Part shown: piece by piece, positions 1 through 46,360 of the stretch | Position numbering within the stretch: the stretch's first letter is position 1 | Layout of the letters: each line of letters begins with the position of its first letter | Made by a program: the position numbers and the translations under genes | Notes under the pieces: model-generated | Told to the model about the DNA's origin: nothing | The model's database searches: none | The model's input: only the letters and a program-made list of their open reading frames with translations | NCBI RefSeq assembly: GCF_058153355.1 | Contig: NZ_CM177019.1 | Reading direction: 5' to 3' (one strand) | Length of the DNA: 64,000 nucleotides

Positions 1-358
1 CTTCAGAGTCATTAATCTGGGCGTAATGGTCAGCCAGGACGAATATATTGATGCTGCCATTGAAACTGGCGCTGACGCGATTGTCGTCTCCTCTATCTAT
101 GGGCATGGCGATATCGATTGTCTGGGCATGCGCGAACGCTGCATCGAGCGTGGGCTGGGTAACATCATGCTCTATGTGGGCGGTAACCTGGTGGTCGGAA
201 AACATGACTTCGCTGACGTGGAAACCAAGTTCAAAGAGATGGGATTTGATCGCGTCTTTTCCCCAAGTCATGACTTAGAAGATGTTTGTCAGCTGATGGC
301 CCACGATATCACCCAACGTCATGACGTTGATACTCGCATTCTTGAAGAGGCAATCTGA
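1..358 (+). CDS. Glutamate mutase small (sigma, B12-binding) subunit, 5'-truncated by window edge
   Basis: Frame continues open to position 2 (FRVINLGV upstream of the first Met). Translation resembles clostridial GlmS/MutS B12-binding subunit (AIETGAD..VSS.YG.G.IDC, VGGN.VVGK). Sits first in a glmS-glmL-glmE-mal gene order. Confidence 0.8.
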
Positions 359-1746
359 TGCAAATCGTCTCTGTCGATATTGGATCGACGTGGACCAAAG
401 CAGCCCTCTTCACCCGGGAGGGGGACGCGTTAACGTTGGTTAACCACGTTCTGACCCCAACCACCACCCATCATCTGGCGAAAGGGTTTTTCTCCAGCCT
501 GGACCAGGTGTTAAACGTAGATGATGCCCTCCCCCTGTTAAACAGTGGTGAGGTTGCATTGAAGTATTCCTCCTCTGCCGAAGGTGGGCTGGCGGTTGCC
601 GCAATGGGATTGGTGCCTTCTATCACCCTGGAAACCGCGAAAGTAACCGCTCACTCTGCGGGTGCTAAAATTGCGCAATATTACGCCTACAAGCTGAACC
701 GCCGTGATATCCAGGCACTGGAAGAAACGCAGCCCGATATTCTCTTGTTCACCGGCGGCACCGACGGCGGAGAAGAAAGCTACGGACTGAATAACGCCCG
801 TGTGCTGGCAGAATCCAAACTCGACTGCGCCATTATTTATGCCGGAAACCGGGATATTCAGGATAAGGTGCAGGAGATCCTCGGGCATAAAGACCTGACC
901 ATCGTCGACAACGTTCTGCCCGATCTTGACCATCCGAACCCTTTAGCTGCACGCCAGGCTATCTGCGACATATTCCTTAAACGCATCGTTAAAGGGAAAG
1001 GGCTGGATGTCATTGTTGATAAAACAGGCGAAGAACCAATGCCGACACCATGGACGGTCTTTGAACTGGTTAAGGCAATCAGTAACGTCGATCACAGCTG
1101 GAAAGAGTTCATGCTGATCGACATGGGCGGCGCAACCACCGATGTCTATTCCGCCTGTGCCAACACGCTCTCGCCCGACACTGTTTTACATGGCGTACCG
1201 GAACCCTTCGTAAAACGGACGGTGGAAGGCGATCTGGGAATGCGCGTCTCGGCAATGGTTGTTGGTGAAAGTGCGAAAGAGTTAGTCAGTGTGAATTTTG
1301 CTCAGCAACCCGCACAGTTGGACGCTTTTTATCATTACCTCCGTCATCTAGTCGCTCATCCCGACTACTTACCCGCGAATGCAGATGAAAAATATTTCGA
1401 TACCGTCCTGGCCGGACTGTGTGTGGGTTATGCCACCGAAAGACATGCGGGCACCAAAAAAGAGGTCTGCACCTGCGTCGGCAATGTCGATTTACAGATG
1501 GGACGTGATCTGACAACCGTGCGTAAAGTCGTGGGTTCCGGCGGATGGCTCTCACGTGCCAGTCAGTTCGATATGCATCACTGGTTGAAATACCGCGAGT
1601 TAAACGACGACGGTAAACGCATTCTCTTACCGACCGAATTTGAATATTACCGCGATTACCGGGGGCTATTACCACTGCTGGCAAACGTCGCCAGAGTCGA
1701 TCCGCTGGCCGCCGCGCGCACCAGTATTCAATGCTTAACCCTATAA
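358..1746 (+). CDS. glmL: Glutamate mutase-associated protein L (MutL/GlmL-like, putative reactivase/chaperone)
   Basis: 462-aa ORF lying between the mutase S and E subunit genes, as in clostridial glm/mut operons. Start overlaps the upstream stop (ATGA). Confidence 0.7.
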   Translation: MQIVSVDIGSTWTKAALFTREGDALTLVNHVLTPTTTHHLAKGFFSSLDQVLNVDDALPLLNSGEVALKYSSSAEGGLAVAAMGLVPSITLETAKVTAHSAGAKIAQYYAYKLNRRDIQALEETQPDILLFTGGTDGGEESYGLNNARVLAESKLDCAIIYAGNRDIQDKVQEILGHKDLTIVDNVLPDLDHPNPLAARQAICDIFLKRIVKGKGLDVIVDKTGEEPMPTPWTVFELVKAISNVDHSWKEFMLIDMGGATTDVYSACANTLSPDTVLHGVPEPFVKRTVEGDLGMRVSAMVVGESAKELVSVNFAQQPAQLDAFYHYLRHLVAHPDYLPANADEKYFDTVLAGLCVGYATERHAGTKKEVCTCVGNVDLQMGRDLTTVRKVVGSGGWLSRASQFDMHHWLKYRELNDDGKRILLPTEFEYYRDYRGLLPLLANVARVDPLAAARTSIQCLTL

Positions 1747-1764
1747 CAATTAAGGCTGCAATCA

Positions 1765-3210
1765 ATGGAACTTCGAAATAAGAAATTAACCCATGACGAA
1801 TTCATGACCGAGCGGCAACAGGTATTGAAAACCTGGGAAACCGGCAAGGATGTTGAAAACTTTGAAGATGGCGTTAAATACCAACAAACCATTCCTGAGC
1901 ATAAACGCTTCTCTCATGCCCTGCTGAAAGCAGACAAGGAAGGTAAAACCCTTAGCCAACCGCGCGCAGGCGTGGCGCTGATGGACGAACACATCGAACT
2001 ACTGAAAACACTACAAGAAGAGTGCGATCTGCTGCCGAGCACTATCGATGCATATACCCGTCTGAATCGGTACGAAGAAGCGGCTGTAGGGATTAAAAAA
2101 TCCATCGAAGCCAGAACCTCTAAACTGAACGGTTTACCGGTAGTTAACCACGGCGTCGCAGCTTGCCGTCGCCTCACCGAAACTCTGCAAAAACCGCTAC
2201 AGATCCGCCACGGCACGCCAGATGCGCGTCTGCTGGCTGAAATCTCGATGGCCAGCGGCTTTACCAGTTATGAAGGCGGCGGCATTTCCTACAATATTCC
2301 GTATGCCAAGCGCGTAACGCTGGAAAAATCGATCCGCGACTGGCAGTACTGCGACCGTTTAATGGGGATGTATGAAGAACACGGGATCCGCATCAACCGC
2401 GAACCGTTTGGCCCACTAACGGGTACGCTGATCCCGCCGTTTATCTCGCACTCTATCGCGATAATCGAAGGCTTGCTGGCACTGGAACAGGGTGTGAAAT
2501 CTATTACCGTTGGTTATGGACAGGTCGGCAGCCTGACGCAGGATGTCGCGGCGATCCAGTCTCTGCGTGAACTTGCACACGAATACTTTCAGAGCTATGG
2601 CTATACCGACTATGAATTAAGTACCGTATTTCACCAGTGGATGGGCGGCTTTCCGGAGGACGAATCGAAAGCGTTCGCCATTATCTCCTGGGGTGCTGCC
2701 GTCGCGGGGATGTCTGGTGCTACCAAAGTCATCACCAAAAGTCCGCACGAAGCCTGGGGCATCCCGACTGCTGCTGCCAACATTCAGGGGCTAAAAGCCT
2801 CCCGCCAGATGCTCAACATGGTCAACGAGCAGAAATTCCCGCCGTGCCCGGCGGTTGAACTGGAAATTGAACTGATTAAGAGCGAGGTTCGCGCTGTACT
2901 GAACAAAGTGTTCGAACTGGGTAATGGTGATATTGCGCGCGGTACGGTGCTGGCATTTGAAGCGGGCGTACTGGATGTACCGTTTGCCCCAGCCGCCTGC
3001 AACGCAGGCAAAATTCTTCCGGTCCGTGACAACACCGGCGCGATACGCGTACTGGAAGCCGGAGCCGTTCCATTGCCAAAAGATATTCTCGACCTCCACC
3101 ACGATTACGTTGCTGAACGCGCACGCTTTGAAGGACGCCAACCGACATTCCAGATGGTTGTAGATGACATCAATGCTGTATCCCACAGTAAATTAATAGG
3201 AAGACCATAA
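1765..3210 (+). CDS. glmE: Glutamate mutase large (epsilon) subunit / methylaspartate mutase E
   Basis: 481-aa ORF of the expected size and operon position between glmL and methylaspartase. Confidence 0.8.
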   Translation: MELRNKKLTHDEFMTERQQVLKTWETGKDVENFEDGVKYQQTIPEHKRFSHALLKADKEGKTLSQPRAGVALMDEHIELLKTLQEECDLLPSTIDAYTRLNRYEEAAVGIKKSIEARTSKLNGLPVVNHGVAACRRLTETLQKPLQIRHGTPDARLLAEISMASGFTSYEGGGISYNIPYAKRVTLEKSIRDWQYCDRLMGMYEEHGIRINREPFGPLTGTLIPPFISHSIAIIEGLLALEQGVKSITVGYGQVGSLTQDVAAIQSLRELAHEYFQSYGYTDYELSTVFHQWMGGFPEDESKAFAIISWGAAVAGMSGATKVITKSPHEAWGIPTAAANIQGLKASRQMLNMVNEQKFPPCPAVELEIELIKSEVRAVLNKVFELGNGDIARGTVLAFEAGVLDVPFAPAACNAGKILPVRDNTGAIRVLEAGAVPLPKDILDLHHDYVAERARFEGRQPTFQMVVDDINAVSHSKLIGRP

Positions 3211-4451
3211 TGAAAATAAAACAGGCCCTTTTCACCGCTGGCTACTCTTCATTCTATTTCGATGACCAGCAGGCGATAAAAAACGGAGCGGGTCACGACG
3301 GCTTTTTTTATACCGGAGAGCCGGTAACACAGGGGTTTAACGCCGTACGTCAGGCCGGGGAGTGCGTTTCGGTTCAGTTGATTCTGGAAAACGGTGCGGT
3401 CGCCGTAGGCGACTGTGCTGCCGTACAGTATTCCGGGGCAGGCGGTCGCGATCCACTGTTCCTCGCAGAGCACTTTATTCCGTTCCTCAACGACCATATC
3501 AAGCCATTACTGGTAGGCCGCGATGTGGATGCTTTCCTGCCGAATGCCCGTTTCTTCGACAAATTGCGTATTGACGGAAACTTGCTGCATACCGCCGTAC
3601 GTTACGGATTATCACAGGCGCTGCTTGATGCTACCGCGCTGGCAACCGGCCGTCTAAAAACTGAAGTGGTCTGTGATGAATGGCAGTTGCCACGCGTGGC
3701 GGAATCCATTCCATTATTTGGTCAGAGCGGCGACGATCGATATATCGCTGTCGATAAGATGATCCTTAAGGGCATCGACGTGCTACCTCATGCGCTGATT
3801 AATAACGTCGAAGAGAAACTGGGCTTTAAAGGAGAAAAACTGCGCGAATATGTCCGTTGGCTATCCGATCGGATTCTAAGCAAACGCACCAGCGCACGCT
3901 ACCACCCTACCCTGCACATCGATGTATACGGCACTATTGGTCTGATCTTCGATATGGATCCGCTTCGCTGTGCGCAATACATCGCCAGTCTGGAAAAAGA
4001 GGCGCAAGGCCTGCCGCTCTACATTGAGGGGCCGGTCGATGCCGGTAACAAGCCCGATCAAATTCGCCTGCTGACCGCGATTACCAAAGAGCTGACGCGC
4101 CTCGGTTCCGGCGTGAAAATTGTGGCCGATGAATGGTGTAACACCTACCAGGATATTGTTGATTTCACTGATGCCGCCAGTTGCCACATGGTGCAAATCA
4201 AAACCCCGGATCTGGGCAGTATTCACAACATCGTCGATGCAGTTCTTTATTGCAACAGCCACAGCATGGAAGCGTACCAGGGCGGCACCTGCAATGAAAC
4301 CGATGTCAGCGCCCGCACGTGTGTCCACGTCGCCCTTGCCGCTCGCCCTATGCGTATGCTGGTAAAACCGGGGATGGGCTTTGACGAAGGCCTCGATATC
4401 GTCTTCAACGAAATGAATCGTACTATCGCGCTGTTGCAGGCTAAGGATTAA
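3210..4451 (+). CDS. mal: 3-Methylaspartate ammonia-lyase (beta-methylaspartase)
   Basis: 413-aa ORF, same length as clostridial methylaspartase, enolase-superfamily-like. Start overlaps the glmE stop. Confidence 0.8.
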   Translation: MKIKQALFTAGYSSFYFDDQQAIKNGAGHDGFFYTGEPVTQGFNAVRQAGECVSVQLILENGAVAVGDCAAVQYSGAGGRDPLFLAEHFIPFLNDHIKPLLVGRDVDAFLPNARFFDKLRIDGNLLHTAVRYGLSQALLDATALATGRLKTEVVCDEWQLPRVAESIPLFGQSGDDRYIAVDKMILKGIDVLPHALINNVEEKLGFKGEKLREYVRWLSDRILSKRTSARYHPTLHIDVYGTIGLIFDMDPLRCAQYIASLEKEAQGLPLYIEGPVDAGNKPDQIRLLTAITKELTRLGSGVKIVADEWCNTYQDIVDFTDAASCHMVQIKTPDLGSIHNIVDAVLYCNSHSMEAYQGGTCNETDVSARTCVHVALAARPMRMLVKPGMGFDEGLDIVFNEMNRTIALLQAKD

Positions 4452-4454
4452 CAA

Positions 4455-5825
4455 ATGGCTCGTTCTTTTAAAGTCTTATCGCCAACGGCAATCCTCGGGT
4501 ATGGATTCCCGGAAGAGAGCTTCCGCAAAGCGATGGCAGAATCGCCCGATCTGATCGCCGTTGATGCAGGCTCTTCCGATCCTGGCCCCCACTACCTCGG
4601 GGCGGGCAAACCGTTTACCGATCGCGCAGGGGTCAAACGCGATCTACGCTATATGATCACCGCAGGCGTGCAAAATAATATACCGGTGGTGATCGGAACG
4701 GCCGGCGGTTCTGGTGCAGCTCCACACCTGGAGTGGTGCCGAGAAATAATTCATGAGATTGCCCGGGAAGAGCACCTCGCGTTCTCGATGGCGCTGATCC
4801 CGGCAGACGTTGACAAAGCCATCGTCCACCAGGCGCTGGATAACGGCAAAATCACGGCGCTGGATTTTGTCCCGCCGTTAACCCACGACGCGATTGACGA
4901 AAGTACGTATATCGTCGCGCAAATGGGCGTCGAACCCTTCCAGCAGGCGCTGAAAGAAGGCGCGCAAGTGGTGCTGGGCGGGCGCGCTTACGACCCGGCC
5001 TGCTTTGCTGCGCTACCGATCATGCAAGGCTTTGATGAAGGTCTGGCGCTGCATTGTGGGAAAATCCTTGAATGCGCGGCAATCGCCGCAACGCCCGGCT
5101 CAGGCTCTGACTGTGCGATGGGCATCATTGATGACAACGGCTTTACGCTGAAGACATTTAATCCGAAGCGTAAATTTACCGAAACGTCAGCGGCTGCACA
5201 CACACTGTATGAGAAATCCGATCCCTACTTCCTGCCAGGACCTGGCGGCGTGTTGAACCTGAAAGGTTGCACATTTAAAGCGATCAATGATGGCGAAGTT
5301 TACGTCAGCGGTTCTAAGCATGAAGAAACGCCCTATGCCCTGAAACTGGAAGGTGCGCGGCGGGTGGGTTTCCGCTGTTTGACCATCGCCGGAACGCGCG
5401 ACCCGATCATGATCGCCGGGATCGATAACATCATCGATGAAGTCAAAACCAGCGTTTCGCGTAATCTGTCCTTAGACGATGACAGCATTCGCATCAATTT
5501 CCACCTGTACGGCAAAAACGGGGTGATGGGTAACCATGAACCGATGCAAACTGCCGGGCATGAGCTGGGGATTGTCCTTGATGTAGTTGCACCGACCCAG
5601 GAAATTGCCAACAGCGTTTGCTCGCTGGTGCGCTCTACCATGCTGCACTACGGCTATGAAAACCGCATCGCTACCGCAGGCAACCTGGCGTTCCCGTTCT
5701 CCCCTTCTGATATCCAGGGCGGGCCGGTATACGAATTTTCCATATATCACCTGATTGAAGCCAACGACGCTCTGCGTTTTGATTTCCATATTGAACAGGT
5801 GACGCCAGAAGGAGTTCAGGCATGA
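4455..5825 (+). CDS. DUF1446 (AtuA-like) family protein, function unknown
   Basis: 456-aa ORF tightly packed in the operon; family assignment from recollection of AtuA-like sequence features. Confidence 0.6.
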   Translation: MARSFKVLSPTAILGYGFPEESFRKAMAESPDLIAVDAGSSDPGPHYLGAGKPFTDRAGVKRDLRYMITAGVQNNIPVVIGTAGGSGAAPHLEWCREIIHEIAREEHLAFSMALIPADVDKAIVHQALDNGKITALDFVPPLTHDAIDESTYIVAQMGVEPFQQALKEGAQVVLGGRAYDPACFAALPIMQGFDEGLALHCGKILECAAIAATPGSGSDCAMGIIDDNGFTLKTFNPKRKFTETSAAAHTLYEKSDPYFLPGPGGVLNLKGCTFKAINDGEVYVSGSKHEETPYALKLEGARRVGFRCLTIAGTRDPIMIAGIDNIIDEVKTSVSRNLSLDDDSIRINFHLYGKNGVMGNHEPMQTAGHELGIVLDVVAPTQEIANSVCSLVRSTMLHYGYENRIATAGNLAFPFSPSDIQGGPVYEFSIYHLIEANDALRFDFHIEQVTPEGVQA

Positions 5826-6139
5826 AACAGTCAATTGTCTCACTGGCGCAAGTCATTCGTTCGAAAAATGCCGGACCTTACGAACTGGTTTTAGATATTT
5901 TATTTAAAACGAAAGAAAACTATGAGCGAGTAAAATCATCAGGGCAATTAACCCCAGAACTGATTGCGCGCTTATATCATGTTGAACCTGACTTTATTCA
6001 TCGTATTGTCTGGTTTGATCCTTCTAACGCAGTAAAAATTGTCATGCCACGAGATATTATCTCCGGGAATGTAGGTGACAATGATGTCTATGGCGCACAG
6101 CAACATGCACCTTTATTAAATATGAGTTTCGATTTGTAA
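5822..6139 (+). CDS. Small DUF4387-like protein (usual partner of DUF1446 proteins)
   Basis: 105-aa ORF overlapping the upstream stop by 4 nt, indicating translational coupling. Confidence 0.55.
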   Translation: MKQSIVSLAQVIRSKNAGPYELVLDILFKTKENYERVKSSGQLTPELIARLYHVEPDFIHRIVWFDPSNAVKIVMPRDIISGNVGDNDVYGAQQHAPLLNMSFDL

Positions 6140-6299
6140 AAATCCGAACACTTTTAGCCAACTGACATCCCGTCACTTATTGCAGCTCAACACTTCAGCT
6201 ATTTGTAAGGTTGTTATAGCAGGTAGATGCCTGAATCTCTATTCAGGCATCCACTTCTCCTGATTCTGATTTATCGCCGTGCACCTGATGGAGGAAAAA

Positions 6300-7580
6300 A
6301 TGAAGAAAATAAGTTTAACCACGATGATTCTTTTGGCGCTGGTACTTGGAATGATTATCGGCGTAGTGCTCAATAACACTGCTTCACCGGAAACAGCAAA
6401 ACTCTATGCGCAAGAAATATCGATATTCACGACGATTTTCTTACGACTGATAAAAATGATTATCGCTCCGTTAGTGGTCTCTACCCTGGTGGTAGGTATT
6501 GCTAAAATGGGCGATGCCAAAGCCCTTGGTCGTATTTTTTCTAAAACACTCTTTTTATTTATTTGCGCCTCATTGCTGTCAATTGCCTTAGGCTTGATAA
6601 CGGTAAATTTCTTCATGCCAGGCACAGGAATTAATTTTGTTGCACACGGTGCCGAAACCACCGGAGTGGTCGCGTCAGAACCCTTTACACTAAAAGTATT
6701 TATTTCGCATGCTTTCCCCACCAGCATTGTCGATGCCATGGCGCACAATGAAATTTTGCAAATCGTGGTGTTCTCAATTTTCCTCGGCTGTAGCCTGACG
6801 GCGATTGGTGAGAAAGGCAGCGCCATCGTTCACGCCTTAGATTCGCTGGCACATGCCATGTTAAAGCTCACTGGCTACGTCATGCTCTTCGCTCCCCTGA
6901 CCGTATTCGCCGCTATTTCAGCATTGATTGCTGAACGAGGACTGGCAGTTATGGTGAGCGCCGGGATCTTTATGGGTGAATTTTATTTCACCATGTTATT
7001 ACTTTGGGTGCTGCTTATCGGTCTGGCCATCGTTTATGTCGGCCCCTGCATCAGACGCCTGACCCGCGCCCTTTCAGAACCCGCCCTGCTGGCATTTACC
7101 ACATCCAGTTCTGAAGCTGCTTTTCCGGGAACGCTTGAAAAACTGGAGCAATTTGGCGTTTCCCCCAAAATTGCCAGCTTTGTCTTACCCATTGGCTACT
7201 CATTTAATCTCGTTGGATCAATGGCCTACTGCTCCTTCGCCACAGTTTTCATCGCCCAGGCCTGCAATATCCATTTATCCATCGGTGAGCAAATCACCAT
7301 GCTGTTGATCCTGATGTTGACCTCGAAAGGAATGGCTGGCGTACCACGCGCCTCAATGGTGGTTATCGCCGCCACGCTCAACCAGTTCAATATTCCGGAA
7401 GCGGGGCTGATCTTGCTGATGGGCGTTGATCCGTTCCTTGATATGGGGCGTTCCGCGACAAACGTCATGAGCAACGCAATGGGCGCTGCGATGGTGAGTC
7501 GGTGGGAAGGCGAACATTTCGGCGAGGGTTGTCGGGGTAAAGCATTAAAACCCAATGAATCGAACGTTGCTCTGCCCTGA
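6300..7580 (+). CDS. Dicarboxylate/amino acid:cation symporter (DAACS family), likely glutamate/aspartate uptake
   Basis: Multi-pass membrane protein with GltP/GltT-like sequence. Start chosen at the ATG (6300) preceded by a GGAGGA ribosome-binding site. Confidence 0.8.
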   Translation: MKKISLTTMILLALVLGMIIGVVLNNTASPETAKLYAQEISIFTTIFLRLIKMIIAPLVVSTLVVGIAKMGDAKALGRIFSKTLFLFICASLLSIALGLITVNFFMPGTGINFVAHGAETTGVVASEPFTLKVFISHAFPTSIVDAMAHNEILQIVVFSIFLGCSLTAIGEKGSAIVHALDSLAHAMLKLTGYVMLFAPLTVFAAISALIAERGLAVMVSAGIFMGEFYFTMLLLWVLLIGLAIVYVGPCIRRLTRALSEPALLAFTTSSSEAAFPGTLEKLEQFGVSPKIASFVLPIGYSFNLVGSMAYCSFATVFIAQACNIHLSIGEQITMLLILMLTSKGMAGVPRASMVVIAATLNQFNIPEAGLILLMGVDPFLDMGRSATNVMSNAMGAAMVSRWEGEHFGEGCRGKALKPNESNVALP

Positions 7581-7687
7581 GGGAGATCTTAAGCAATCAG
7601 AAGCCAATGACTACGCATTTTTATAAGCCGGATCATGAAGTTAGACGGCAATTAAGTAACACTAACGTTTAAGGTGAAAAGTGAAAT

Positions 7688-9340
7688 ATGTCCAAACCAT
7701 TTATCTGGCAAGAACCGTTTCTACAAAATAAAGACGGTACAGAATATACATTAATTAGCGATCAACATATTACAGTAACGGAATTAGACGGCGAAGAAGT
7801 AATAAAAATCGCTCCTGAAGCATTAACGCTGCTTGCCCGGCAGGCATTTTATGAAGCCTCTTTTTTCTTACGTTCCGCTCATTTGCAACAGGTCGCCAGC
7901 ATTCTTAACGATCCGCAGGCCAGCAGTAATGATAAATACGTTGCGTTGCAGTTATTACGTAATGCTGAAGTCTCAGCAAAAGGGGTATTACCCAACTGTC
8001 AGGATACCGGCACCGCAACTATTGTTGCCAGTAAAGGGCAACAGATATGGACCGGAGGCAACGACGCCGAAGCCTTAAGCAAAGGCATTTACACCACTTT
8101 TCAGGAAAATAATTTGCGCTTTTCACAAAATGCGCCGCTGGATATGTATACCGAAGTCAATACGTACACCAATCTACCGGCGCAGATTGATATCAGCGCC
8201 GTCGCTGGTGATGAGTACCATTTTCTCTGTATTAATAAAGGGGGCGGCTCCGCCAATAAAGCCGCACTTTATCAGGAAACCAAATCCTTATTGCAACCAG
8301 AAAAACTGACCGCATTTTTAATCGAAAAAATGAAATCGCTGGGCACCGCTGCCTGCCCGCCTTACCACATCGCCTTTGTCGTCGGAGGGCTTTCAGCCGA
8401 TCAAACCTTAAAAGTTGCCAAGCTGGCCTCTACGAAATATTACGACAATTTGCCCACCAGCGGAAACGAGCAGGGACAAGCATTCCGTGATATTGAGCTG
8501 GAAAAAGCGTTGCTCGAAGCCAGTCAGCAATTTGGTATTGGTGCGCAATTTGGGGGTAAATATTTCGCTCATGATATTCGCGTCATTCGTCTGCCGCGTC
8601 ACGGTGGCTCCTGCCCGATAGCTATGGCGCTCTCCTGTTCTGCCGATCGCAATATCAAAGCAAAAATTAACAAGCATGGTATCTGGCTGGAAAAACTCGA
8701 ACACAATCCGGGGCAATATATTCCAGCCTCACTGCGGGAAGAAAATCACGCGCAACATGTACAGCTGGATCTAAACCGTCCGTTGCGTGACGTGATGCAG
8801 GATCTCGCCAGATTACCGGTAGGCACCCGCGTGTCGTTAAGTGGTCCCATCGTAGTGGCGCGCGATATCGCCCACGCCAAAATAAAAGCGCGGCTGGATA
8901 GCGGCGAATCGATGCCGGATTATCTGAAGCATCATATTGTCTATTACGCTGGCCCGGCGAAAACACCGGAGAACATGGCCTGCGGTTCACTGGGTCCAAC
9001 CACGGGCGGTCGAATGGACGGTTATGTCGAAACCTTCCAGGCGGCTGGCGGCAGTCTGGTAATGTTATCGAAAGGTAACCGCAGCCAGCAGGTCACCGAT
9101 GCCTGTCACAAACATGGCGGCTTCAATCTGGGAAGTATTGGCGGTGCAGCTGCGTTACTGGCGCAAGAATATGTCAAAAGTCTGCGTTGCCTGGAATACC
9201 CGGAGCTGGGTATGGAAGCGGTGTGGATGATGGAAGTGGAAAATCTGCCCGCATTCATCCTGGTCGATGATAAAGGCAATAATTTCTTTAGTCAGTTTGA
9301 GCAGCAACACCGCTGCGCCAGTTGCCCTGCGGGACATTAA
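7688..9340 (+). CDS. fumD: Class I fumarate hydratase paralog, probable mesaconase (FumD-type)
   Basis: 550-aa ORF closely resembling FumA/FumB (CQDTGTA, GGGSANK, CPPYH, SCSADRN). Genomic context is the methylaspartate pathway. Confidence 0.85.
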
Positions 9341-9349
9341 GGAAAATGA

Positions 9350-9952
9350 ATGGAAGCGCGAATTTCAACTGAACGGCATGTGCAGCGCCAGCAGAAATTG
9401 AAGGAACAGGTCGATACGCGCGTCGCGGCGGCGATAGAGAAAAAAGGGATCTTGATTGTTTTCACCGGCAACGGCAAAGGGAAATCCACTGCCGCGTTTG
9501 GTACTGTGACGCGCGCGGTGGGTCATGGCAAAACGGTGGGGGTTGCGCAGTACATCAAGGGGCAATGGGACAACGGCGAATACAACCTTCTCCAGCCGCT
9601 GGGGGTTGAGTTTCATATTATGGGAACCGGTTTTACCTGGGAGACTCAGAACCGGCAAGCGGATATCGACGCGGCGAAAGAGGTCTGGTCGGAAAGCAAA
9701 CGGATGCTGGCTGACAAGCGTTACGACTTAGTGGTGCTTGATGAGCTGACCTATATGCTGGCTTACCATTATCTGGACACCGAAGAAGTGATCACTTCTC
9801 TGCAAAACCGCCCGGCACAACAAAGTGTCATTGTCACCGGACGCAGTTGCCACAGTCAGATATTAAAAATGGCGGATACGGTCAGCGAAATCCGCCCCGT
9901 CAAACATGCTTTTGATAACGGCATTCAGGCGCAGCCGGGTATCGACTGGTAA
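9350..9952 (+). CDS. Cob(I)alamin adenosyltransferase (BtuR/CobO family)
   Basis: 200-aa ORF with P-loop-like GNGKGKSTAA, characteristic of CobA/BtuR-type ATP:corrinoid adenosyltransferases. Confidence 0.8.
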   Translation: MEARISTERHVQRQQKLKEQVDTRVAAAIEKKGILIVFTGNGKGKSTAAFGTVTRAVGHGKTVGVAQYIKGQWDNGEYNLLQPLGVEFHIMGTGFTWETQNRQADIDAAKEVWSESKRMLADKRYDLVVLDELTYMLAYHYLDTEEVITSLQNRPAQQSVIVTGRSCHSQILKMADTVSEIRPVKHAFDNGIQAQPGIDW

Positions 9953-9955
9953 TAA

Positions 9956-9990
9956 CTGCGCCTGGCATCCCGCCAGGCGCAGGTTTTACA
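9956..9990. terminator. Bidirectional intrinsic terminator between the adenosyltransferase gene and the convergent LysR gene
   Basis: Perfect 10-bp inverted repeat ctgcgcctgg/ccaggcgcag with a 7-nt loop, followed by a T-run. Confidence 0.6.
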
Positions 9991-10891
9991 TCTCCTGCGG
10001 TACGACCGATTTCGCCAGCAACCATTCACGAAATTGCTGCAAGTGCGGCGAGTCAGACTTCTCTTCCTGCCACGTCATAATAAAACGATTACCGGTACGA
10101 ATAGGCACATCACAGGGAATCACCATATCGCCACTATCCAAATCATGTTGAATAGCGAACCGTGGTAACAGCGCCACGCCGAGATTAGAGCGCACGGCGG
10201 CAATCAGCATTGAAAGCAAATCGAAACGTGGTCCGTTATTGACCAGCGGACTGCTAACGCCAGATAAAGCAAACCACTCTTCCCAGCCAGTAATACGGGT
10301 GCTTTGATGCAGAAGTGGTAACTCAGTAAGCAGTTCTGCCACTGAAAGTTTTTGATCGGACATTGCAAGCAAACTGCCGCTGCATACCGGCAAAATCTCC
10401 TCTTCAAAGAGATATTCTACTTCCGCCCAGGGCGCGCAAAAATTTTCGCGCATAATGACAGCATCGTACTCCCGATTAAGAAAATCGCCGTTATTAGCTA
10501 AAGAATGAATATTAACAATAATATCGGGATGTAACTTTGTGAATTCATGTAAATTTGGGATTAACCAGTGGGTACTAAACGTAGGATTAACGGCAAGTTC
10601 AATAACCTGAACCGTAGGCTGCCAGGTCATAATCGTATTGGTATCGCGTTCCAGCTTATTTAATGTTTCTTTTACTATCCCCAGGTAATACTTCCCTGCA
10701 TCATTAAGAAAAATGCGTTTTTTAGAGTGTGAAAATAGCGGAGTATGTAAAAATTCCTCCAGCGCACTTACTTGTCTGAATACAGCACTTTGGGTTAACG
10801 CTAACTCCTCTGCCGCTCTGGTATAGCTTTCATGACGTGCGACGACCTCAAAAGTCACCAGCAGCTCCGTTTTAGGTATTTTTCCTCGCAT
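9986..10891 (-). CDS. LysR-family transcriptional regulator
   Basis: N-terminal helix-turn-helix typical of LysR regulators (TFEVVARHESYTRAAEELALTQSAVFRQV). Start could instead be the upstream ATG at 10921. Confidence 0.85.
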   Translation of the reverse strand: MRGKIPKTELLVTFEVVARHESYTRAAEELALTQSAVFRQVSALEEFLHTPLFSHSKKRIFLNDAGKYYLGIVKETLNKLERDTNTIMTWQPTVQVIELAVNPTFSTHWLIPNLHEFTKLHPDIIVNIHSLANNGDFLNREYDAVIMRENFCAPWAEVEYLFEEEILPVCSGSLLAMSDQKLSVAELLTELPLLHQSTRITGWEEWFALSGVSSPLVNNGPRFDLLSMLIAAVRSNLGVALLPRFAIQHDLDSGDMVIPCDVPIRTGNRFIMTWQEEKSDSPHLQQFREWLLAKSVVPQEM

Positions 10892-11480
10892 AATGCCGTC
10901 CGTGAAAAAATAACAATTCAAAAATTATTTTATAAAAAACAGTAGCACTAATGAATATCATAATTCAAATAAACAAACCAGTCAGCTATATGTCTAACCA
11001 GGAAAATAAAGTGACAATAATCCTAAAACAGGAATTTCACCTCAGTTATCCGCATGCAATACTTTAAAGCTATTATTGCAAGAATATTATTCATATACAT
11101 GAATATACTCTAAATAAGTCAAGTTGCAGGAAGGGAACAAATAATGAATTTCCAGAAGCTTACATAAGTAAGTGACCTGGGTGAGCGAACATCGATGCAG
11201 CACATGCAACTTGAATTATGACAAGTATACAATGATAAATTTATATACCCTATGTTATATATTATCTATGTCCGGTTAGATTGAATGAGTCATAGCCTTA
11301 AAAGACTTCACAAAAGATAATTCCTCTTTAACAATAAGCCAGATTTACCACTTGTAAAACTTGCTATCGCCACATACACTACGCGCGTTTTCTTTCCCTT
11401 TTGCTGGCTGCTGACCGGAAAGACAAAATTACCCTCGCAATACAGGGGGTTGATTAACGTCTATATTTCAGGACAGCGTT
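10892..11480. promoter_or_regulatory. AT-rich divergent intergenic region between the LysR gene and the RtcB-like gene
   Basis: About 590 bp of strongly AT-rich non-coding DNA between divergently oriented genes. Confidence 0.5.
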
Positions 11481-12878
11481 ATGCATCATCTTTCAAGGCT
11501 TGATAAAGCCTTTCTGCGCAAAGGGATCCAACTTTCCCGCGCCAACAATATTGTTTCATTATGTCGTCCATCAGGAGCCAGTGCCCGCGTACTGCTGCCG
11601 GACGAACTGCCGCTGGAAGAAAAAGCAGTAACACAACTGCTTGATTTTGCAGAAGTGAAGCTACCAGACCACCCAGGTTATGTGCGCCAGACGTGCGCGA
11701 CGCCAGATTTTCATCCCGGCAATGGCGTCCCCGTTGGCGCGGTGGTGGCCTCAACGCCGGATTTAGTCATTCCCGCCGCCATCGGCACCGATATTTCTTG
11801 TGGCATGCGGCTGCTGACGACCGGATTAACACTTGAGCAAGCCGAAGCGCATAAAGACGTCATCGCTCAGCGGTTAACGCAAGTGCTACTGCAAAATGAG
11901 CGCGATGTTCCGTTATCCGCACAGGCGTTCACCGCGCTTTTTGATGGCGGACCGGCAGATTGCGTGTCGACCTTGCCATCAGCAGGTCTCTGGACACGCA
12001 CGAATATCCCCCGAATGGTACAAGAGATTGACCGCTGCATTGGGCTTAACGAGCATAACAGTCATTCGCGTTATGCCCCACCCGCCCTGCTGGCAACGGA
12101 CCGCGCATTACTCCGCGATCCTTGTCTTGGTACGCCGGGTTCAGGTAATCATTTTATTGAACTTCAGGTCGTTGATAGCGTGGTTGATCGCCATGTAGCC
12201 TGGCAACAAGGGCTGAAAACAGGCGATATTGTGGTGATGATCCACAGTGGATCGCGAGATGTTGGCTTTTACGTCGGAAGACGCTGGATGGATCGCGCCC
12301 GTGCTGAATGGCCCACCGGACATAAACATCCACAAAGCGGGTTATATGGTCTGGCAGGCGGACTGGCGGAGGAATATCTACAAGCGATAGGAATGGCGGC
12401 GCGTTACGCGTGGTTAAATCGCGTGACAATTGCCGAAATGGTGCGCGTATGTCTTGCCAATCTCTTTCATCAGGACAATTCGCATCTGGTGGTGGATGTG
12501 CCACATAACATCATCCTTCGCGAGCATGAAATGAATATTCATCGCAAAGGCGCAACACCGGCACGAGTGGGCAATCTGGCGTTAATCCCCGGTTCAATGG
12601 GCGATTATTCGTGGCTTGCGGTAGGTTGCGGCAACCCGGAGTGGCTGTGGTCTTGCAGTCACGGAGCAGGACGCAGCCAGCGTCGGCAGGCCATGCGCTC
12701 ACGCGCGACTGAAGAGTCAACGTTGCCGTGGCAATGCGTCACATTGCGCGAAGAACGGCGTATTGAAGAAGCGCCAGCTGCTTATAAAGATATTGGTCCG
12801 GTTATCGAAGCCCAACAAGAGGCCGGATTAATTCATCCAGCGGTTAGATTCCGACCGTGGTTAACGTTTAAAGCATAA
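11481..12878 (+). CDS. RtcB-family RNA ligase-like protein (orphan paralog)
   Basis: 465-aa ORF with RtcB hallmark motifs (DISCGMR, GSGNHFIE, HSGSRDVG, CSHGAGR). No rtcA or rtcR gene adjacent. Confidence 0.75.
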   Translation: MHHLSRLDKAFLRKGIQLSRANNIVSLCRPSGASARVLLPDELPLEEKAVTQLLDFAEVKLPDHPGYVRQTCATPDFHPGNGVPVGAVVASTPDLVIPAAIGTDISCGMRLLTTGLTLEQAEAHKDVIAQRLTQVLLQNERDVPLSAQAFTALFDGGPADCVSTLPSAGLWTRTNIPRMVQEIDRCIGLNEHNSHSRYAPPALLATDRALLRDPCLGTPGSGNHFIELQVVDSVVDRHVAWQQGLKTGDIVVMIHSGSRDVGFYVGRRWMDRARAEWPTGHKHPQSGLYGLAGGLAEEYLQAIGMAARYAWLNRVTIAEMVRVCLANLFHQDNSHLVVDVPHNIILREHEMNIHRKGATPARVGNLALIPGSMGDYSWLAVGCGNPEWLWSCSHGAGRSQRRQAMRSRATEESTLPWQCVTLREERRIEEAPAAYKDIGPVIEAQQEAGLIHPAVRFRPWLTFKA

Positions 12879-15089: not shown

Positions 15090-15275
15090 GTCACCCGTAG
15101 GCCTGATAAGACGCGCAAGCGTCGCATCAGGCATCGCGTGTCGGATGCGGCGCGAGCGCCTTATCCGACCTACATTGATGGTCCCCGTAGGCCTGATAAG
15201 ACGCGTCAGCGTCGCATCAGGCTTCAATTGCCGGAGAAAGCGATAATGCCTCATCCGGTCTACAGTGCAGGTGAA
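15090..15275. repeat. REP/BIME palindromic elements in the sucB-sucC intergenic region
   Basis: Repeated gcctgataagacgcg...cgtcgcatcaggc and ggatgcggcg palindromic units. Confidence 0.8.
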
Positions 15276-19476: not shown

Positions 19477-19762
19477 ATTTCCTGCATTTCTTTTGTAGGC
19501 CGGATAAGGCGTTCACGCCGCATCCGGCGCTGTTTGCCTGATGCGACGCTTGCGCGTCTTATCAGGCCTACGATTCCTGCATTTCTTTTGTAGGCCGGAT
19601 AACGCATTCACGCCGCATCCGGCACTGGTTGCCTGATGCGACGCTTGCGCGTCTTATCAGGCCTACGATTTCTGCATTTCTTTTGTAGGCCGGATAAGGC
19701 GTTCACGCCGCATCCGGCACTGGTTGCCTGATGCGACGCTTGTGCGTCTTATCAGGCCTGGG
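19477..19762. repeat. Three tandem copies of a ~95-bp REP/BIME unit in the sdhB-sucA intergenic region
   Basis: Unit tctgcatttcttttgtaggccggataaggcgttcacgccgcatccggc...gcctgatgcgacgcttgcgcgtcttatcaggcctac repeated head-to-tail three times with a few substitutions. Confidence 0.85.
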
Positions 19763-39068: not shown

Positions 39069-39153
39069 TACTGCTCCTGAACGGTTTACAGGAGTAAGTG
39101 TAGACGTTGGCAAATGATGTTTGTGAAGTTAATCCTGTTGTAGCAGGGCAAGA

Positions 39154-39977
39154 TTACGAAAGCACGCTCCCCGCAAGGACTGACGCCAGGTAGTTTCTGT
39201 CCATGGCTGCCCTTTCCATTCACACGTGAAATCAATAAGTTCATCAGGGACATCGCAAACAATGTGAAGACGGATTTCTTCTCTGCCGTGACTCTTTTCA
39301 CTAATTGCGTAACTGTCATGCTCTGGATTATTTAATTCTTTCAGTGAGAATTTTTCCTCAAAGGCTTTATTTAGCCGCCCCTGGTTTCCTTTTACAGCGA
39401 ATAAATAATCACCTCCCTGTTTTTGTATCTTCTCTGCAATATCTTTCTGGCAACCCATCGCATCAGTTGTGATGATTTTTCCTTTAATATCCAGCATGTT
39501 AAGAAGTTCAGGGATAGCTGTAATTTCATTTGATTTCTCATCCGTCCTGATCTGTCCGATGACCAGACTGTGCATTGTTGAGAACGCACTAATGACATGA
39601 ATCGCTCCCCTGCAGCGACTCTTGTCATAAGAATGCCGGAGCTTTTTTCCATCAATTGCAATGACGTCTTTATCATCTGAAGAATGGCAGTCACGCATCC
39701 AGTTAATAAAGCACTCGTGAAATTTTGCAGGACTGATACAGGATACAACTCTGGCAATGGTATCGTGAACAGGAATACCATTTTCAAAATCACCCTATTG
39801 CTTCAAAAAATCGAGATGTGTTTCCCCAAAATCCTCTATATCTTCTCAACCTTCTGCACCCGAAATAACGGCGCAAATAGTCAACAGTAGAATATCCGAT
39901 AATTTATGTTCCACTTTCCAGGCTTGTCTGTAATCGGGGATAATAGAAATATGTTCCATCAATTTTTTAAGTACCAT
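39154..39977 (-). pseudogene. H-repeat-associated (ISAs1-family) transposase pseudogene
   Basis: N-terminus [43 protein letters not shown] hits an in-frame TGA. Downstream frames carry [20 protein letters not shown]...[18 protein letters not shown] and the terminal [16 protein letters not shown], requiring a frameshift and an internal deletion after ...EWKG. Confidence 0.85.
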
Positions 39978-40370
39978 TTTGTTCTCCTTAATTATGTAAG
40001 GAGTATTTGATCATGTATAAGCAATAAAAAACAGCTTCAGGTAATGAGGAATATCTCAATTTTTAAACATAAAATGCGAATTGTTTAGTACAAAAAAGCA
40101 GCGTTACGTGATCTTTTCCTGCCATGGGTCTTTACCACAGCAGCTGGGGTTGTTTGGGACCGACTTCCGACAGCAGATCCCGGTGAGCCTGCCACCATCT
40201 CTTCACAAGCTTATGCTTATTACATGCAAAACGTCCCGTTTTGCATCTTTGTGCCTACGGCACACGATGATCTTTCCCTGAGGAGTCATACTTTGTTAGG
40301 ATAAAAAACCTTTAAATAGCTTTCCTACCTTCCAATAAAAACCACAGAATCAGCAATGTTTAAATTTCAA

Positions 40371-41192
40371 TCAGTATTGAGTTTCATTTGTGATCTCTAC
40401 ATTCACTCCTGATGGCTTCTCGCTAAATAAATATCTCATACTCTCATTCTCCATAATCACGGATATATTTAACCCTCCATGAATCCATTGATATGTAATA
40501 TTTTTATCATCAATCTTATAACTAAAATTCCCAATTGGTAACTTTTCCTTCAGATAATTATTCTCCTCATAACTAAGTGCTAGTAATTTATCATAGGCAC
40601 CTTTTAAATCAAAACCCTCAAAATAGCAATGTTCTTTTGATGAACCATCAAATTCTTTTCTGGGATTAGCATCATGACACCAAGTCGACCATTTTTCTTT
40701 TTTTTCCTCAGAAGTATGTTTTTTTTCATTGAAAAACAGCACATAATATTTCTCTGGGATTATTATCTGATCATTAATTTTTAAGATATCTCTATATGGC
40801 CCAGGACATTTATGAACAGAATCCATAATGGATATTTCTTCAGGAAAAAGTTTGCCTTCATGTTTAAATAATTTCCTGTACATACCAACTGTTGTTTGTG
40901 ATAAGTAATATGACAAGGGCTTTTTTTTAACTTCAACATAGTCAGTCGAGCATACGAGACTATTTTCCAATGAATAATCATTTATCGTTAGCTTTCGCCC
41001 ATCCATATTTATCACTACCTTACTGTATGTTTCATCAAGGGCACTTATTATAAGCGAATCATGTTTACCAAAAACATCGATATCTGAAACATTATGATAA
41101 ATCCATACGGTATTTTTAGTATTATCATTAGAATATGCGATACCATGAATAAAAAAAATCATTAGAAAGCCCATAAAAAATTTACCGCGCAT
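40371..41192 (-). CDS. Putative periplasmic immunity protein for the adjacent T6SS cell-wall-lytic effector
   Basis: 273-aa ORF with Sec-type signal peptide (MRGKFFMGFLMIFFIHGIAYS), Lys/Asn-rich, AT-rich codon usage, 19 bp downstream of the effector gene. No recognisable homology, so function is inferred from position. Confidence 0.6.
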   Translation of the reverse strand: MRGKFFMGFLMIFFIHGIAYSNDNTKNTVWIYHNVSDIDVFGKHDSLIISALDETYSKVVINMDGRKLTINDYSLENSLVCSTDYVEVKKKPLSYYLSQTTVGMYRKLFKHEGKLFPEEISIMDSVHKCPGPYRDILKINDQIIIPEKYYVLFFNEKKHTSEEKKEKWSTWCHDANPRKEFDGSSKEHCYFEGFDLKGAYDKLLALSYEENNYLKEKLPIGNFSYKIDDKNITYQWIHGGLNISVIMENESMRYLFSEKPSGVNVEITNETQY

Positions 41193-46185: not shown

Positions 46186-46360
46186 ATAAACCCCATAGCT
46201 ACCGCACTCATGGTGCAAACCATACGGGCTTATAAGAAAGGCTTAAGTGAGATATCTGCCAGATAGCAACTATTAGGAAAATATTTATATATATTTCATG
46301 AATATATATTTCGGTTGGTATAACGGTGTCTAAATATTCCTCTGAACATCTTCCTGATAC

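Follow-up and report, generated by a model that had tools for sequence, protein, structure and literature searches.

The window analysed here is a stretch of 64,000 nucleotides (contig NZ_CM177019.1 of the NCBI RefSeq assembly GCF_058153355.1) from a divergent lineage of Escherichia coli. The gltA of this lineage reaches no more than 99.5% identity with nine genomes and 95–99% with the rest. The window begins with an operon in the order glmS-glmL-glmE-mal-cmlA-cmlB-transporter-fumD-cobO. All nine genes are intact in the E. coli operon, glmS being cut by the start of the window. The following features are found:

1–358, plus strand: glmS (3′ part; the gene begins before the window), glutamate mutase subunit S; NCBIfam NF002612/TIGR01501, profile positions 40–147 of 148; RefSeq annotation at the syntenic locus.
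358–1746, plus strand: glmL, glutamate mutase accessory/reactivating protein; NCBIfam TIGR01319 and NF040745.
1765–3210, plus strand: glmE, glutamate mutase subunit E; NCBIfam TIGR01503, E 2e-260.
3210–4451, plus strand: mal, methylaspartate ammonia-lyase; NCBIfam TIGR01502, E 2e-163.
4455–5825, plus strand: cmlA, 456 aa, ATG start, AtuA/DUF1446 family; very likely the large subunit of citramalate lyase.
5810–5825, plus strand: cmlA-cmlB coupling junction, with the Shine-Dalgarno motif AGGAG (5810–5814) within cmlA and the ATGA stop/start overlap (5822–5825).
5822–6139, plus strand: cmlB, 105 aa, ATG start, DUF4387; very likely the small subunit of citramalate lyase.
6223–6254, plus strand: hairpin in the cmlB-transporter spacer with 14-nt arms and a 4-nt loop, without U tail; dG −19.7 kcal/mol, z −3.9.
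6300–7580, plus strand: dicarboxylate/amino acid:cation symporter (GltP/DctA-like, DAACS); the NCBIfam DctA and GltP matches are under the curated cut-offs; the RefSeq start is 6300.
7688–9340, plus strand: fumD, class I fumarase/mesaconase (FumD type, PRK15392) converting mesaconate to (S)-citramalate; NCBIfam NF011921, 1276 bits, over the cut-off.
9350–9952, plus strand: cobO/cobA (RefSeq name cobO), corrinoid adenosyltransferase providing coenzyme B12 for glutamate mutase; NCBIfam NF004637/TIGR00708.
9956–9982, plus strand: strong intrinsic terminator at the operon end; 11-bp stem with 9 G-C pairs.
9986–10891, minus strand: convergent gene of a LysR-family regulator; GcvA-like LysR matches in NCBIfam, RefSeq product of 301 aa.

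The symporter, named GltP in an earlier description of the cluster (PMC4682846), is probably responsible for glutamate uptake, and the convergent LysR gene, named LTTR in the same study, is the putative regulator of the cluster. The FumD orthologue of E. coli O157:H7 has been characterised biochemically (PMC4682846). In other genera a hairpin of different sequence is found at the matching position of the cmlB-transporter spacer.

The original prediction had described cmlA and cmlB as two open reading frames with an overlap of 4 nt, placed between methylaspartase and the transporter of a mesaconate pathway operon. We could confirm the coordinates, the lengths and the shared ATGA, and the NCBIfam matches of the neighbours agree with this placement. 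The cmlA start lies 3 nt beyond the mal stop codon (4449–4451) and is preceded at a distance of 7 nt by an AAGGA motif (4443–4447). Likewise, the AGGAG motif is located 7 nt ahead of the cmlB ATG. The register of the junction is unchanged in the Klebsiella, Salmonella and Lelliottia loci as well as in a Shewanella locus (L061). We infer that the ATGA overlap couples the translation of both genes, so that the two subunits of a single enzyme are made in equimolar amounts.

CmlA matches the Pfam family AtuA (PF07287) weakly and only in part (E 7e-19, 68 bits, residues 63–394) and CmlB matches DUF4387 (PF14330, E 3e-39), and neither protein is matched by a model of NCBIfam or by the defence models of PADLOC. 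In E. coli, RefSeq labels the two products as 'acyclic terpene utilization AtuA family protein' and 'DUF4387 domain-containing protein'. The name methylaspartate ammonia-lyase was also considered for CmlA and rejected: a BLASTP comparison with the adjacent Mal gave an E value of 0.022 over 63 residues, and TIGR01502 does not match.

In a phmmer search against the PDB, CmlA aligns over residues 1–456 with chain A of the entries 9ERQ/9EVF (E 7e-293, 419 of 456 residues identical, 92%) and CmlB with chain B (E 5e-57, 88/104 identical, 85%). The depositors of these entries, which became public in October 2025, named the chains 'Citramalate lyase, subunit A (cmlA)' and 'subunit B (cmlB)'. Both chains occur in a 1:1 ratio in the crystals, together with either AMPPNP and citramalate or ADP and pyruvate. 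The sequence of chain A is 100% identical to the protein of a Klebsiella michiganensis locus (L002) whose gene order matches that of the window. The original prediction had proposed a fold comparison, and the predicted fold superimposes on the crystal structure with a TM score of 0.93. Apart from 9ERQ/9EVF no close match to this fold was returned from the solved structures searched in the PDB, which makes CmlAB an unusual lyase.

The proteins of the window differ from the PDB sequences by 37 (CmlA) and 16 (CmlB) substitutions, all of which fall outside the columns that are invariant in the clade. For CmlA, none of the 37 differences coincides with the ∼150 invariant columns counted in an alignment of 38 sequences that includes the window protein. 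The polar residues D42, R177, D180, E253, and E299, which are conserved throughout the family, are all present in CmlA, and its glycine-rich loops 37–49 and 81–91 are conserved as well; a recognised nucleotide-binding fold was not detected. Judged from this conservation, CmlA may be the subunit carrying the active site, with these residues and loops as candidate constituents.

Thus, we consider it very likely that cmlA and cmlB encode the two subunits of an (S)-citramalate lyase that works independently of thioesters and provides the final step of the methylaspartate (mesaconate) pathway of the operon. The pathway could operate as follows. The transporter would take up glutamate, which the B12-dependent glutamate mutase GlmSE, served by GlmL and CobO, would convert to (2S,3S)-3-methylaspartate. 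Mal would deaminate methylaspartate to mesaconate, and FumD would hydrate mesaconate to (S)-citramalate, in keeping with the reported stereochemistry of its product (PMC4682846). Finally, CmlAB would break the C2–C3 bond of (S)-citramalate, yielding pyruvate and acetate. We suggest that this cleavage is of the retro-aldol type and acts on free citramalate, requiring neither a thioester on an acyl carrier protein nor a CoA ester, and that the adenine nucleotide seen in the crystals is a bound cofactor or effector without net consumption.

In vivo evidence is available from a recent preprint that makes use of the cmlAB genes of Raoultella (bioRxiv 10.64898/2026.01.16.699985). In that work the conversion of mesaconate to acetyl-CoA depended on these genes: an acetyl-CoA auxotroph needed the cml plasmid for growth on mesaconate, which the authors confirmed through curing of the plasmid and isotope labelling. 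The authors describe CmlAB as CoA-independent. They never mention ATP, they note that high acetate is thermodynamically unfavourable for the cleavage and they find Acs upregulated (bioRxiv 10.64898/2026.01.16.699985), all of which fits free acetate as the product and no ATP cost. Our literature search returned, besides this 2026 preprint that uses the enzyme, only the 2015 study on FumD (PMC4682846), and neither a primary paper on CmlAB nor enzymology of the E. coli proteins was found; the assignment of the E. coli pair as a putative lyase therefore rests on the depositors' names, the identities of the ligands and the preprint.

The gene neighbourhood points in the same direction. We surveyed 80 genome loci from many phyla that encode CmlA homologues with 57–92% identity. 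The gene cmlB follows cmlA directly in 78 of 79 loci and lies 149 nt further on in the 79th. Among the 72 close homologues with sufficient upstream DNA, 66 have mal directly upstream on the same strand; glmE is found within 10 kb of cmlA in 56/63 loci and a homologue of the class I fumarase close by in 36/60. Homologues of citC, citD, citE or citF were found within 10 kb in none of the 80 loci and are also absent from the operon in the window. Mal is not adjacent in 6 of the 72 cases, so that the pair is not strictly tied to glutamate mutase. Five of these homologues (Accumulibacter, Shewanella, Desulfospira) stand alone and at the sixth locus (L070) mal is ∼3 kb off; the neighbours at the mal-less loci (HrpA, a protease, FadE, an RND efflux system, MalQ, a histidine kinase) are unrelated and gave no clue to an alternative pathway.

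The family beyond these homologues is large, comprising 2388 AtuA/DUF4387 clusters at 50% identity, and the Cml clade is its mal-tied part. The DUF4387 module never stands apart in the wider family, being either next to an AtuA-type protein or fused to it. Members include pairs within citCDEF-tctABC-prpF-aconitase loci, fungal A-B fusions and AtuA of Pseudomonas. All 18 representatives of the long relatives (>520 aa) have a C-terminal CmlB-like domain and are thus A-B fusions. Most contexts of the wider family are short contigs or fungal loci; one is informative, with the pair next to citCDEF and tctABC. The fusion of CmlA-type and CmlB-type parts as one polypeptide is seen in other lineages.

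The reading made from the sequence alone, that the encoded pathway ends at citramalate and that the co-expressed pair is a candidate for the missing citramalate-converting step, arrived at the correct function: it is borne out by the identity to the crystallised proteins, the use of the enzyme in vivo and the neighbourhood survey, which had been proposed along with it and revealed strong co-occurrence. The PDB entries of October 2025 and the preprint of January 2026 have overtaken the view that the function is uncharacterised. In fact the cmlAB system is already known, as others have solved its structure and named the enzyme. The annotation lags behind, however: RefSeq and Pfam keep the labels 'AtuA family' and 'DUF4387', and the name methylaspartate ammonia-lyase survives in some records.

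The pair would close a gap stated in 2015, when enterobacteria including E. coli O157:H7 were seen to have a pathway from glutamate to citramalate and no known means of citramalate disposal. At that time neither citrate lyase nor isocitrate lyase nor methylisocitrate lyase gave detectable citramalate lyase activity in E. coli O157:H7, and attention had already been drawn to a DUF1446 gene without an assigned function behind mal (PMC4682846). With CmlAB, the operon would encode every step that leads from glutamate to pyruvate, acetate, and ammonia. In the anaerobic intestine the pathway may feed roughly one fifth of E. coli genomes and also many gut pathogens. Two small genes would here replace the six-gene classical citramalate lyase, and owing to this economy and to its unusual fold CmlAB is already in use in synthetic carbon-fixation pathways.

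The adenine nucleotide in both crystal forms might point to a chemical part for ATP. As a co-substrate, ATP would be used by CmlAB to phosphorylate citramalate at its C4 carboxylate, and the resulting acyl phosphate would be split into pyruvate and acetyl phosphate, from which acetate kinase would regain ATP; the net reaction would still be citramalate to pyruvate and acetate. The non-hydrolysable analogue AMPPNP together with the substrate and ADP together with the product is the pattern expected of ATP turnover, and activation of the carboxylate would ease the formation of the acetate carbanion. Classical lyases overcome this carbanion problem via a thioester. Against this, the preprint has direct cleavage to acetate, with neither ATP nor acetyl phosphate mentioned and with acetate disfavouring the reaction, and it reports upregulation of Acs, the acetate-activating enzyme, instead of a requirement for Pta. 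In addition, an acetate-kinase-like gene is present within 10 kb in only 1 of 80 loci, although this is a weak test with an approximate AckA query and ackA being a housekeeping gene. On balance we regard the co-substrate scheme as unlikely, and we likewise give only a limited chance to a chemical involvement of the bound adenine nucleotide by which the distal carboxylate becomes an acyl phosphate and acetyl phosphate is released. If true, it would be a third way of citrate-lyase-type C-C cleavage besides acyl-carrier thioesters and CoA esters, and the whole AtuA/DUF4387 family would be made up of lyases that depend on a nucleotide and act on 3-hydroxy-3-substituted di- and tricarboxylates. The depositors of the structures have probably already settled the involvement of the nucleotide, at least as regards the acyl phosphate.

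A further alternative does not concern the chemistry. The genes cmlAB could be intact in this E. coli lineage while the cluster is cryptic or serves only in a niche, for example, the gut, and contributes nothing under ordinary conditions. In E. coli O157:H7 neither expression of the cluster nor anaerobic growth on glutamate nor citramalate lyase activity in extracts was observed (PMC4682846). Moreover, the glm/mal/cml island is accessory, with 1125 carriers among the 5426 complete genomes of E. coli, and in one strain an IS1 element splits fumD. Against a silent cluster stand the intact nine-gene operon in the window and the full length of both genes, which keep every residue that is invariant in the clade. 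The dN/dS ratios also argue against it: they are ∼0.04 for cmlA and 0.05–0.09 for cmlB in comparison with other genera, where dS is saturated, and 0.12 inside E. coli; with this saturation in mind, the values between genera indicate strong purifying selection on cmlA and cmlB. We consider a cryptic or niche-limited cluster unlikely.

It is very improbable that the pair serves glutamate mutase or methylaspartase in an accessory or maturation role, or that it represents a second methylaspartate ammonia-lyase. The pair adjoins mal and glmSLE, and several database records call homologues '3-methylaspartate ammonia-lyase', a name that was flagged as unexplained for the DUF1446 gene (PMC4682846). 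However, the reactivation and cofactor roles are already supplied by GlmL and CobO, the crystals contain citramalate and pyruvate, and the methylsuccinate/mesaconate module of the preprint draws on Cml, on FumA and Acs of the host and on a variant of Sdh, with glutamate mutase unlisted. The suggestion of a mutase maturation factor, also part of the original prediction, is not supported in view of GlmL, CobO and the ligands in the crystals. Finally, that CmlA acts as AtuA does in the acyclic terpene (citronellol/geraniol) catabolism of Pseudomonas is hardly credible, since only the family assignment by Pfam and RefSeq speaks for it, whereas the Pfam match is weak and partial and no other atu genes, in particular those of geranyl-CoA carboxylase (atuC/F), atuD and atuE, are present among the open reading frames scanned, which at 26–10921 are glm/mal/fumD/cobO and at 35–46 kb are unrelated.

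Returning to citramalate lyase as the most probable identity of the pair, several known systems can be compared. AtuA of Pseudomonas (encoded in the atuABCDEFGH cluster and namesake of PF07287) belongs to the same Pfam family as CmlA, but it has another gene context and, as the weak Pfam score implies, is a distant relative; a review lists AtuA without an assigned reaction (PMC4097962). Functional analogy only links CmlAB to isocitrate lyase and methylisocitrate lyase, to which we detected no relationship in sequence or fold. These two enzymes cleave a free hydroxy-acid without thioester activation. E. coli extracts that are rich in isocitrate lyase or were obtained after growth on propionate, which induces the methylcitrate pathway, showed no citramalate lyase activity (PMC4682846). 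The further citramalate route drawn in the same study (PMC4682846, Fig. 2) has in common with CmlAB that pyruvate and a C2 unit are formed.

The classical citramalate/citrate lyase (CitDEF with CitC, CitX, and CitG) of Clostridium tetanomorphum and other glutamate fermenters shares with CmlAB the net reaction and the place after mesaconase. The classical enzyme operates via an acetyl thioester that is borne by an acyl-carrier subunit, whose prosthetic group derives from CoA. CmlAB, in contrast, is CoA-independent according to the preprint, and its crystals contain an adenine nucleotide instead. Both enzymes are unrelated in sequence and fold, and neither CmlA nor CmlB belongs to the Cit families of Pfam and NCBIfam. 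In clostridial clusters the genes of the classical lyase adjoin glm/mal, at the very place where cmlAB sits here (PMC4682846). CmlAB is thus a non-orthologous replacement of the classical citramalate lyase. The closest known system is CmlAB of Raoultella planticola and Klebsiella-type enterobacteria, which has the same subunit sizes of 456 and 105 aa, the same two-gene layout and the same operon order, and from which the E. coli pair differs in the host and the 37 and 16 substitutions alone.

On the evidence of sequence, the identity of the gene pair downstream of mal is settled by its match to a citramalate lyase of known structure. Both open reading frames of the original prediction and their overlap are present:

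4455–5825, plus strand: cmlA, open reading frame of 456 aa with an ATG start
5822–6139, plus strand: cmlB, open reading frame of 105 aa with an ATG start

The end of cmlA and the start of cmlB have the ATGA at 5822–5825 in common. AGGAG is found 7 nt upstream of the cmlB start, and cmlA starts 3 nt past the mal stop codon with AAGGA ahead of its start. In Pfam the large protein partially matches AtuA (PF07287, E 7e-19) and the small protein matches DUF4387 (PF14330, E 3e-39); the NCBIfam scan returned no model for either. A PDB sequence search matched all 456 residues of CmlA to chain A of 9ERQ/9EVF (E 7e-293, 419/456 identical) and CmlB to chain B (E 5e-57, 88/104 identical), which the depositors named 'Citramalate lyase, subunit A (cmlA)' and 'subunit B (cmlB)'. 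The surveyed Klebsiella michiganensis locus L002, whose nine-gene order is that of the window, encodes a protein 100% identical to PDB chain A. The pair is thus orthologous to an enzyme that has both a solved structure and a name, and the finding is already known: a citramalate-converting enzyme had been the leading interpretation and is borne out, but the function can no longer be called uncharacterised. The enzyme is not new, and the gain for annotation is slight. As both PDB sequences have equal chain counts, the subunits are present 1:1 in the crystals; the stop/start overlap would yield matched amounts of CmlA and CmlB for a 1:1 assembly. Between genera cmlA and cmlB have dN/dS values of 0.04–0.09, and strong purifying selection acts on both.

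NCBIfam supports the account of the neighbouring genes in the original prediction, with glmS (cut by the window edge), glmL, glmE, and methylaspartate ammonia-lyase upstream and a GltP/DctA-like symporter, a FumD-type class I fumarase, and a corrinoid adenosyltransferase downstream. Past the adenosyltransferase gene come a strong terminator (9956–9982) and then, oppositely oriented, a LysR gene. A stable hairpin without U tail (6223–6254, plus strand; 14-nt arms, 4-nt loop, dG −19.7 kcal/mol, z −3.9) is situated in the spacer that separates cmlB from the transporter gene. Loci of Klebsiella, Citrobacter, Lelliottia, and Salmonella also have a hairpin at the equivalent position, with another sequence, thus its structure and not its sequence is conserved. 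Within the operon the hairpin could act in mRNA processing or stability, or could bind a regulator.

The neighbourhood survey scanned one genome per species and returned 583 relatives, of which the best 80 (57–92% identity) are the surveyed loci; these span Enterobacterales, Betaproteobacteria, Riflebacteria, Aminicenantes, Spirochaetes, Lentisphaerae, Clostridia, and others. Neighbours were sought by tblastn with the proteins of the window, and only loci with sufficient flanking DNA were counted. A cmlB homologue lies directly downstream of cmlA in 78/79 loci and 149 nt further on in the 79th. The proposed co-occurrence with the glm and mal genes was found, as mal is directly upstream on the same strand in 66/72 loci and glmE is within the flank in 56/63; a class I fumarase homologue is nearby in 36 of 60. 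Five loci (L030, L061, L063, L072, L075) in Accumulibacter, Shewanella, and Desulfospira carry cmlAB homologues of 57–68% identity with glm and mal absent within 10 kb and unrelated neighbours.

A mesaconase producing (S)-citramalate had been described in FumD of E. coli O157:H7 (Kronen and Berg, PMC4682846). In that study a DUF1446 gene of then unknown function, frequently mis-annotated as methylaspartate ammonia-lyase, was noted downstream of mal, and expression of the cluster was attempted and not achieved. Extracts of citrate-, acetate-, or propionate-grown cells showed activity of citrate lyase, isocitrate lyase, and the methylcitrate pathway and none of citramalate lyase, and the fate of citramalate was judged unclear (PMC4682846). 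We reject the name '3-methylaspartate ammonia-lyase' carried by some homologues, as it has no basis in homology. A 2026 preprint used 'Cml' from Raoultella planticola, a gift of the Berg laboratory, with a separate ribosome-binding site for each of cmlA and cmlB; growth of an acetyl-CoA auxotroph on mesaconate required the Cml plasmid, a dependence verified by plasmid curing and isotope labelling (10.64898/2026.01.16.699985). A primary description of the CmlAB enzyme was not found in the literature searched.

Most likely the operon encodes a complete route from glutamate to pyruvate and acetate. Glutamate would enter by the symporter and be converted to methylaspartate by the B12-dependent GlmSE, which GlmL and CobO would serve; Mal would then form mesaconate, FumD (S)-citramalate, and CmlAB would cleave the latter to pyruvate and acetate.

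Residues 1 to ~215 of CmlA are modelled as an N-terminal alpha/beta domain and the C-terminal half as beta-rich with ferredoxin-like elements. Two glycine-rich loops are conserved, DAGSSDPGPHYLG at 37–49 and GTAGGSGAAPH at 81–91; the first was modelled with low confidence and is probably mobile. Polar residues conserved throughout the family are D42, R177, D180, E253, and E299. Candidates for citramalate specificity are residues whose invariance is confined to the Cml clade, the part of the family tied to mal, such as H91, C95, R239, K254, R404, and D419.

In the deposited complexes the substrate is accompanied by AMPPNP and the product by ADP. Crystallographers use this pattern for enzymes that turn over ATP, and an acyl-phosphate mechanism, in which ATP is turned over and acetyl phosphate produced, would be chemically attractive. 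Nevertheless, the preprint handles the Cml reaction as a reversible cleavage giving free acetate, never mentions ATP for it, and reports upregulated acetyl-CoA synthetase in evolved strains (10.64898/2026.01.16.699985); moreover, unrecovered ATP would be unaffordable for a fermentation yielding ~1 ATP per glutamate. On these grounds we favour, with fair confidence, a nucleotide which is bound and not consumed, and retain the acetyl-phosphate variant as an unlikely rival. Acetate kinase is co-located with the cml genes in 1/80 loci, which says little for either reading.

The window is E. coli DNA. Of 5426 complete E. coli genomes, 1125 contain the 1.7-kb stretch, located between cydAB and sucCD. 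The window is from a somewhat divergent lineage, as its gltA shares 99.5% identity with that of 9 genomes and 95–99% with the remainder. In the nearest E. coli genome (E200086, NZ_CM128605.1, locus L001, 12234–14663) IS1A splits fumD with cmlAB and the other genes intact, which points to dispensability of the pathway in some lineages.

The LysR gene and sucD are separated by an open reading frame of the RtcB (RNA ligase) family (11481–12878, plus strand, 465 aa), preceded by a 560-nt spacer (10921–11480). The LysR–RtcB–sucD stretch is entire in only 138/5426 complete E. coli genomes, mngR adjoins sucD in its place in K-12, and PADLOC gave no match. Four Rfam matches to naRNA4, a REP/BIME-type repeat, fall in intergenic regions of the suc/sdh gene block (19498–19758, plus strand, three copies; 15100–15170, minus strand). 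The segment 39129–46218 (minus strand) holds an orphan module of type VI secretion, of which the first three entries below are the members, and next to it a group-II-intron match and a truncated transposase:

43987–46218, minus strand: VgrG
41212–43977, minus strand: 921-aa protein, endolysin-like in its C-terminal domain, probably a cell-wall-degrading effector
40371–41192, minus strand: 273-aa open reading frame without family match, which may be the immunity protein of the putative effector
40079–40196: match to group-II-intron D1-D4-2 (Rfam, 42.9 bits; gathering score 36)
39129–39698, minus strand: truncated ISAs1 transposase

A search of 1.8 billion representatives gave 2388 clusters for the AtuA/DUF4387 family. 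A C-terminal CmlB-like domain is present in each of the 18 listed members that exceed 520 aa, and these fusions indicate that A and B are parts of a single functional unit. One fusion, a single 608-aa polypeptide of 40% identity on a fungal contig (L082, SDIL01000071.1, 1–10630), has an acetate kinase gene ~7 kb away, which could be chance but is relevant to a possible production of acetyl phosphate by the family. On metagenome contigs (L084–L086, 1–17359) a pair with 36% identity to CmlA, that of the distant representative P0185, is flanked by the classical citrate lyase genes citXG/citCDEF on one side and on the other by tctCBA (a tricarboxylate transporter), an oxaloacetate-decarboxylase-like gene, prpF, and an aconitase gene. 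The arrangement suggests action of other members on tricarboxylates, and it is a hint that related chemistry of the lyase type, acting on different carboxylic acids, may be widespread.

The clostridial glutamate clusters described by Kronen and Berg have citDEF at the position corresponding to cmlAB (PMC4682846), and homologues of citC, citD, citE, or citF were found in 0/80 surveyed loci; CmlAB is therefore a non-orthologous substitute for the classical citramalate lyase. It is unrelated to the CitDEF-type enzyme as well as to citramalyl-CoA lyase, and AtuA of Pseudomonas, to which the review consulted assigns no reaction, is only a distant family relative of CmlA.
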